Shown: piece by piece, positions 7,648 to 7,755 of the stretch | How positions within the stretch are numbered: position 1 is the stretch's first letter | Layout: every line of letters begins with the position of its first letter | Virus record (IMG/VR): IMGVR_UViG_2734482544_000001 | Reading direction: 5' to 3' (one strand) | DNA from: a virus | Taxonomy: Duplodnaviria; Heunggongvirae; Uroviricota; Caudoviricetes | Length of the DNA stretch: 7,755 bases | The notes under the pieces: generated by a model | Told to the model about the DNA's origin: nothing | What the model saw: only the letters and a program-made list of their open reading frames with translations | The model's database searches: none | Made by a program: the position numbers and the translations under genes

Positions 7648-7701
7648 TATTCACCTCTCGCAGCCTTACTAGACTGGCCCCCTGAATCTCCAGACAACCA
7701 G

Positions 7702-7721
7702 TATCACTTAAATAAGTGATA
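7702..7721. repeat. Inverted repeat TATCACTT-AAAT-AAGTGATA (8-bp arms, 4-bp spacer) upstream of the endolysin gene
   Basis: Read directly from the sequence. Each arm begins with TATCAC, the conserved half-site of lambdoid CI/Cro operators, but the arm spacing gives a 20-bp site rather than 17 bp. It lies about 55 nt upstream of the endolysin ATG in a 108-nt stretch with stops in the endolysin frame and one other. Confidence 0.6.
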
Positions 7722-7755
7722 GTCTTAATACTAGTTTTTAGACTAGTCATTGGAG

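Follow-up and report, generated by a model that had tools for sequence, protein, structure and literature searches.

The window, by which we mean the whole 7,755-nucleotide stretch of DNA analysed here, reaches at its right-hand edge into the lysis genes of a prophage. What lies between position 7648 and that edge, directly upstream of the endolysin start codon? The features found there are collected in table 1. The 5' part of the endolysin gene is 99.3% identical to rrrD as annotated in E. coli. The rest of the gene is hidden by a run of N (7217–7515), and a full-length copy at a locus that shares the junction described below (L003) matches Pfam PF00959 at 1.1e-43.

Table 1. Features at the right-hand edge of the window, with the evidence for each.
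Feature	Position	Strand	Basis
5' part of SAR endolysin gene (R21/RrrD type)	7516..7647	minus	ORF translation; start codon 7647-7645
3' remnant of class II (S21-type) pinholin gene	7647..7669	minus	frame translation; match to intact loci L001 and L005
left copy of the 5-bp target-site duplication CTTAC	7665..7669		flanks the IS in four loci
left end of IS2, first 86 bp	7670..7755	plus	100% identity to IS2 copies
IS2 left terminal inverted repeat (IRL), 42 bp	7670..7711	plus	IRL/IRR alignment; literature
inverted repeat, IS2 bp 33-52	7702..7721	plus	repeat finder; PMC3299598
weak extended -10 promoter P_IRL (TGATAGTCT)	7717..7725	plus	literature coordinates
ACTAGT-TTTTAG-ACTAGT, IS2 bp 61-78	7730..7747	plus	untranslated orfA leader

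On the minus strand, the 23 nt that lead into the endolysin read (C)GT AAG GCT GCG AGA GGT GAA TAA, that is, (R)KAARGE*. These are the last seven codons of a holin gene (…KAARGE and the stop), six residues being encoded there. The holin TAA overlaps the endolysin ATG (ATAATG), as it does in intact relatives, and the putative Shine–Dalgarno sequence of the endolysin, GAGAGGTG (7659–7652), lies inside the remnant. Two intact loci were available for comparison: L001 (holin 1308–1523, rrrD 1523–2020) and L005, from E. coli FDAARGOS_943 (holin 12564–12779, rrrD 12067–12564). The remnant is identical, base for base, to the holin/rrrD junction of both, the identity ending exactly at 7669, and in the alignment with L001 everything from the endolysin to that position is identical and everything beyond it unrelated. 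In the window, as in L001 and L005, the end of the holin gene adjoins and overlaps the start of the SAR endolysin. When positions 7517–7755 were compared by megablast with 5,426 complete E. coli genomes, the inner 153 nt matched junctions between a class II holin and rrrD, at up to 99.3% identity. Sequence identity changes sharply at 7669/7670, and the outer 86 nt behave as a multi-copy sequence.

Upstream of the endolysin ATG (7647–7645), the first-pass annotation had reported stops in two minus-strand frames and a third frame that is open and Cys-rich, and translation bears this out. It overlooked the end of one ‘stopped’ frame, …SSKAARGE*, right at the endolysin start, which is the first clue to a holin C-terminus. 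The open frame is a spurious ORF of 64 aa (7556–7750, minus strand) that runs across the IS2, holin and endolysin segments; we looked for a Pfam match to it and found none. It is an annotation artefact of the IS2 insertion. The same ORF has been called protein-coding in at least five NCBI assemblies.

What is the sequence beyond 7669? The remaining 86 nt are identical to bases 1–86 of the complete IS2 in L007 (JTBL02000001.1). Taken alone, they give 20,770 matches, chromosomal as well as plasmid-borne, spread over 4,678 of the 5,426 complete E. coli genomes. An annotated ‘IS3-like element IS2 family transposase’, with a programmed frameshift, begins 6 nt past the match; correspondingly, the orfA ATG would fall at IS2 position 92, six nt beyond the end of the window. 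Annotated copies of this IS2 end break unrelated genes, one example with the same 86 nt interrupting an autotransporter pseudogene. From the laboratory IS2 the sequence differs at one base, IS2 position 32, where it has CCAGTATC in place of CCAATATC (PMC3219604). This base is a common natural variant, and copies of the 86 nt at ≥99% identity occur in 2,408 records.

The termini of IS2 are imperfect repeats of 41/42 bp, IRL being the 42-bp one, and the outer TAGACT of IRL (window 7670–7675) serves as the -10 element of Pjunc, a promoter created only at the junction of the IS2 minicircle (PMC3299598, PMC3219604). The inverted repeat TATCACTT-AAAT-AAGTGATA that had drawn attention to this stretch is present as described (full sequence TATCACTTAAATAAGTGATA). 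A repeat finder resolves it into 9-nt arms, 7702–7710 and 7713–7721, 100% complementary about a 2-nt centre. It lies across the inner end of IRL, and P_IRL begins within its right arm. Statistically it is unexceptional, the other 7.2 kb of the window holding three comparable spaced repeats of ≥9 nt; its weight comes from published IS2 footprinting, not from chance statistics. There, IS2 residues 39–42 (T,T,A,A) and 43–48 (A,T,A,A,G,T) were protected, 5'TAAATAA3' was named as the docking site of the repressor OrfA/InsA, and TGAT at bp 48–51 was assigned to the extended -10 promoter P_IRL (PMC3299598). The published residues 39–51 match window positions 7708–7720 base for base: the two protected tracts fall at 7708–7711 and 7712–7717, the docking site at 7709–7715 and TGAT at 7717–7720. 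Judged by its sequence, the repeat contains the OrfA/InsA docking site TAAATAA. The earlier description of the repeat as operator-like holds in so far as a published repressor site stands there beside a promoter; it fails in that both belong to IS2 (OrfA/InsA and P_IRL) and not to the phage.

As assigned in the literature, P_IRL drives orfA/orfAB on the plus strand, away from the endolysin; the reading of its hexamer as TAGTCT is our own. A simple sigma-70 scan misses P_IRL, as is expected of an extended -10 promoter that has no -35 hexamer. Because that scan gives it no computed support, we take the promoter from the literature, as we do the OrfA binding site.

The two ACTAGT sites reported at 7730–7735 and 7742–7747, with TTTTAG between them, are likewise part of IS2 (bp 61–66 and 73–78). 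They lie between P_IRL and the orfA Shine–Dalgarno sequence, GGAG (7752–7755); a SpeI site downstream of this IS2 promoter is mentioned in PMC3219604. An RNA hairpin between the two palindromic sites was considered and rejected: at -8.7 kcal/mol (z = -0.56) it is no more stable than shuffled controls, and we therefore assign no function to the pair. A further CTAG, at 7669–7672, had also been reported correctly, and the suspicion that the tetranucleotide clusters here is borne out by a count over the whole window, in which three of the six CTAGs lie within 78 nt. CTAG is otherwise depleted, six being observed against 28.8 expected from base composition and 7.1 from a trinucleotide Markov model. 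Two members of the cluster are intrinsic to IS2 (positions 62 and 74), and the third is composed of the last C of the target duplication and the terminal TAG of IS2. Since two come with the element and one is made by the insertion junction, the cluster is fully explained. A search of the window against Rfam returned no RNA family.

If the window stops within IS2, what lies on the far side? The full element, the second copy of the duplication and the 5' part of the holin gene are visible only in other loci that share the junction, among them NCBI assemblies that were located by means of the spurious 64-aa junction ORF. The identical holin/IS2 junction occurs in two IMG/VR contigs, in draft contigs and in two records of several megabases (5.03 and 4.32 Mb); an exact-match scan for the 49-nt junction in the contigs of a one-genome-per-species set found no instance. 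Four loci resolve the whole insertion: L003 and L004, which are the IMG/VR contigs, L006 (CP032523.1) and L007. The last of these is 100% identical to the window over 4720–7216 and 7516–7755. At all four the element is exactly 1,331 bp long, which is the established length of IS2; it starts TAGACTGG, ends …GGGGCAAATCCA and has CTTAC on either side, the right-hand copy lying beyond the window. Aligned with one gap, IRL and IRR agree in 31 of 42 columns, as imperfect repeats of 42 and 41 bp. The orfA product carries HTH_Tnp_1 (PF01527 at 1.8e-19) and the orfB product rve (PF00665 at 3e-19; PF13683 at 1.8e-18). There is a single AAAAAAG (A6G) frameshift site, at IS2 position 409, and RefSeq annotates a ‘programmed frameshift’. 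The 5-bp spacing for IS2 appears only indirectly in PMC3299598.

The remaining 64 holin codons lie 1,331 bp further on, past the element. Removing the IS and one CTTAC in silico restores a holin frame that ends KAARGE*. In three of the four loci (L004, L006 and L007) the restored protein, MYQMEK…, has its full 71 aa, and it matches PF04971 (‘phage 21 holin S’) at 6.7e-33, with 112.9 bits against a cutoff of 26. Its Kyte–Doolittle profile is strongly hydrophobic at about aa 33–55 and weakly hydrophobic over a Gly/Ala/Ser-rich segment at about aa 8–26, presumably in keeping with the two-segment pattern of S21. In L003 the start of the gene (4690–4715) reads ATGTATCAGATGGAAAAATATC, with five A where L004, L006, L007 and the intact L005 have six; the shorter run, whether a further lesion or a sequencing error in a homopolymer, puts the start codons out of frame. 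Identity between L003 and the window is also only 95% in Rz, and farther downstream the two are unrelated, which indicates that the same holin::IS2 allele occupies different mosaic contexts. The prophage of E. coli FDAARGOS_943, 99.8% identical, provides the empty-site control: its holin–rrrD–Rz cassette is uninterrupted.

We conclude, with a probability of about 0.97, that the stretch is a composite of the tail of an S21-type holin gene and the left end of IS2, made by insertion of IS2 into the holin. This conclusion draws on the identity of both pieces, on the anatomy of the insertion at four loci and on the empty sites in near-identical prophages. Every defining feature of IS2 that was tested was found, namely the terminus, the length and repeats, the duplication, the reading frames, and the sequence of the OrfA site and P_IRL; no data contradict the reading. 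To call the endolysin devoid of an upstream holin ORF, as the first-pass annotation did, was misleading, in that the last seven pinholin codons abut the endolysin ATG and the other 64 lie beyond the IS. That annotation had held that a holin gene immediately past the window edge would make the stretch unremarkable; in the resolved loci such a gene has essentially been found, with the IS in between. Among the origins it had offered for the stretch, the rearrangement junction proved apt: it is the IS2 insertion at 7669/7670.

How did this arrangement come about, and what would it do? The S21-type pinholin gene of a lambdoid prophage received an IS2 element (IS3 family, 1,331 bp), which entered five codons ahead of the holin stop codon and duplicated the pentanucleotide CTTAC. 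Because the window stops 86 bp into the element, only the 23-nt holin tail and the IS2 left end are visible in it. At the left end, the 42-bp terminal inverted repeat would be bound by the transposase, and binding of OrfA/InsA at TAAATAA would repress IS2 transcription, so that the system would be one of IS2 autoregulation. The elements of the left end would accordingly set a low level of transposase transcription on the plus strand; they would not act on the lysis genes of the minus strand.

If the holin is interrupted so near to its end, what becomes of lysis? In the resolved loci the holin frame reads into IRR, with a predicted product of 94 aa. This keeps both hydrophobic segments and exchanges AARGE for a basic tail of 28 residues encoded by IS2; the holin would now end in that tail. 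The endolysin retains its own ribosome-binding site within the 23-nt remnant, and 1.3 kb of antisense IS2 stand between it and the 5' part of the holin together with the late promoter. A consensus scan of both strands around the junction found no promoter or terminator site, nor an outward promoter directed toward the endolysin. With the endolysin, Rz and Rz1 cut off from the late promoter by the antisense IS2, the prophage, already in decay, is probably impaired in lysis.

Quite apart from the IS2 insertion, the prophage is defective. Its portal gene (DUF1073; 2467–3933, minus strand) has premature stops at W59* and Q126* relative to the intact 488-aa copy of FDAARGOS_943, and these are two of only seven substitutions in 4.8 kb. 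The FDAARGOS_943 prophage has lesions of its own: a separate IS2 (L005 8317–9545) splits the large terminase gene at a point corresponding roughly to window 4883–4888, the head morphogenesis gene contains an internal stop, and an IS1 lies nearby. Different copies of this prophage are decaying through different IS hits.

The holin::IS2 allele recurs in several draft genomes, in the two IMG/VR contigs and in at least two chromosome records of multi-megabase size. Could it then be a lesion fixed in a lineage, kept because it disarms the lysis of a decaying prophage that still carries a DedA-family cargo gene, or could the 94-aa holin be functional with altered timing? We regard this as improbable; the sharing of the allele is also accounted for if an IS insertion has hitch-hiked neutrally in an IS-rich clone.

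Might the junction instead be an artefact of assembly, a misjoined contig or a short-read contig that ends in an IS? IS ends occupy both edges of the window (IS1 at 1–83, IS2 at 7670–7755), there is a run of 299 N, such IS-bounded ends and N-runs are typical of drafts that break in repeats, and draft contigs that are 8,216 and 8,009 bp long stop at the same place. Against this, the same junction is found in the 5.03 and 4.32 Mb records and in the two IMG/VR contigs, where it is followed by a complete IS2, a matching duplication and then the holin. Since a misjoin would not produce a target duplication, we consider an artefact very unlikely. A variant of the idea is a cloning scar, which had also been proposed and which the two SpeI sites might suggest; it is not supported, these sites being part of natural IS2 and the 86 nt recurring in natural genomes by the thousand.

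That the stretch is a phage regulatory element of the lysis cassette, whether a repressor/Cro operator or a Q-dependent late promoter or terminator region, is scarcely credible and for practical purposes already refuted: the repeat does lie upstream of a lysis gene and its half-sites, TATCAC/GTGATA, resemble lambdoid operator half-sites, but the 86 nt recur at some 20,800 places that are mostly unrelated to prophages, plasmids and broken autotransporter genes included, and in intact relatives it is the holin gene, not the 86-nt sequence, that immediately precedes the endolysin. The 86 nt are absent from this position in related prophages and phages, and in none of 116 matching phage records are the IS2 part and the endolysin part joined. 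The repeat matches the published IS2 OrfA site (PMC3299598), and the IS2 operator and promoter point away from the endolysin, which disposes of the suggested links to phage repressor, Cro or a Q-dependent late promoter. The suggestion of a terminator fares no better, the scan having found neither a terminator-like nor a sigma-70-like site on either strand.

Insertion of IS2 into the holin gene is already-known biology: a canonical IS2 insertion in a canonical lysis cassette of the S21/R21 type. As a member of the IS2 group of the IS3 family, the element has 86 nt in the window that are 100% identical to annotated E. coli IS2 copies. The full copies agree in their 1,331 bp, 41/42-bp imperfect repeats, 5-bp duplication, orfA (HTH_Tnp_1) and orfB (rve) and A6G site, with the TAAATAA docking site and the extended -10 P_IRL at their published coordinates; compared with other IS2 copies, the insertion site alone is specific to this locus. 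The cassette has the gene order of phage 21 S21/R21 (the DLP12 essD–rrrD–rzpD type), with the same overlap of holin TAA and endolysin ATG and with Rz and an embedded Rz1 downstream. Here, too, the holin belongs to PF04971 and the endolysin has a Gly/Ala-rich, SAR-like N-terminal segment. Unlike that cassette, the present one has a holin broken five codons before its stop, with a predicted product of 94 aa, and an endolysin that lies 1.3 kb away from the late promoter and the 5' part of the holin. The IS1 end, the two portal nonsense mutations and the IS2 in the holin are nothing unusual for the IS-mediated prophage decay of IS-rich Escherichia and Shigella.

The result matters for annotation only. 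The proper label is ‘IS2 left end inserted in a class II holin pseudogene’; neither a regulatory region nor a SAR endolysin without a holin should be recorded here. In enterobacterial drafts rich in IS elements, contigs often end within IS termini, and such termini carry operator and promoter motifs of their own and an unusual CTAG-rich sequence.

The 83 nt at the left-hand edge of the window (1–83) are an IS1 terminus and match the IS1A of L005 at 100% identity; they read GGTGATGCTGCCAACTTACTGATTTAGTG… on the minus strand and lie just downstream of a Gp24-like gene. With IS ends at both edges the window is an IS-bounded contig, as expected from short-read assembly of an IS-rich strain. Most of the endolysin gene and the beginning of Rz are hidden under the run of 299 N (7217–7515), and the matches that flank this run lie 463 nt apart, not 299, in L003, L005 and L007. 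Given this difference the run does not mask the sequence base for base; it is a scaffold gap whose size was estimated, or else a mask that was shortened. An ORF of 266 aa that passes through the run (6847–7647) is an artefact that fuses the endolysin with Rz. On the plus strand, opposite to and between the lysis cassette and the terminase genes, positions 6246–6758 encode a membrane protein of 170 aa with a DedA/VTT domain (PF09335 at 9.3e-14), annotated as a DedA family protein in relatives; it looks like a cargo gene (‘moron’) of the prophage.
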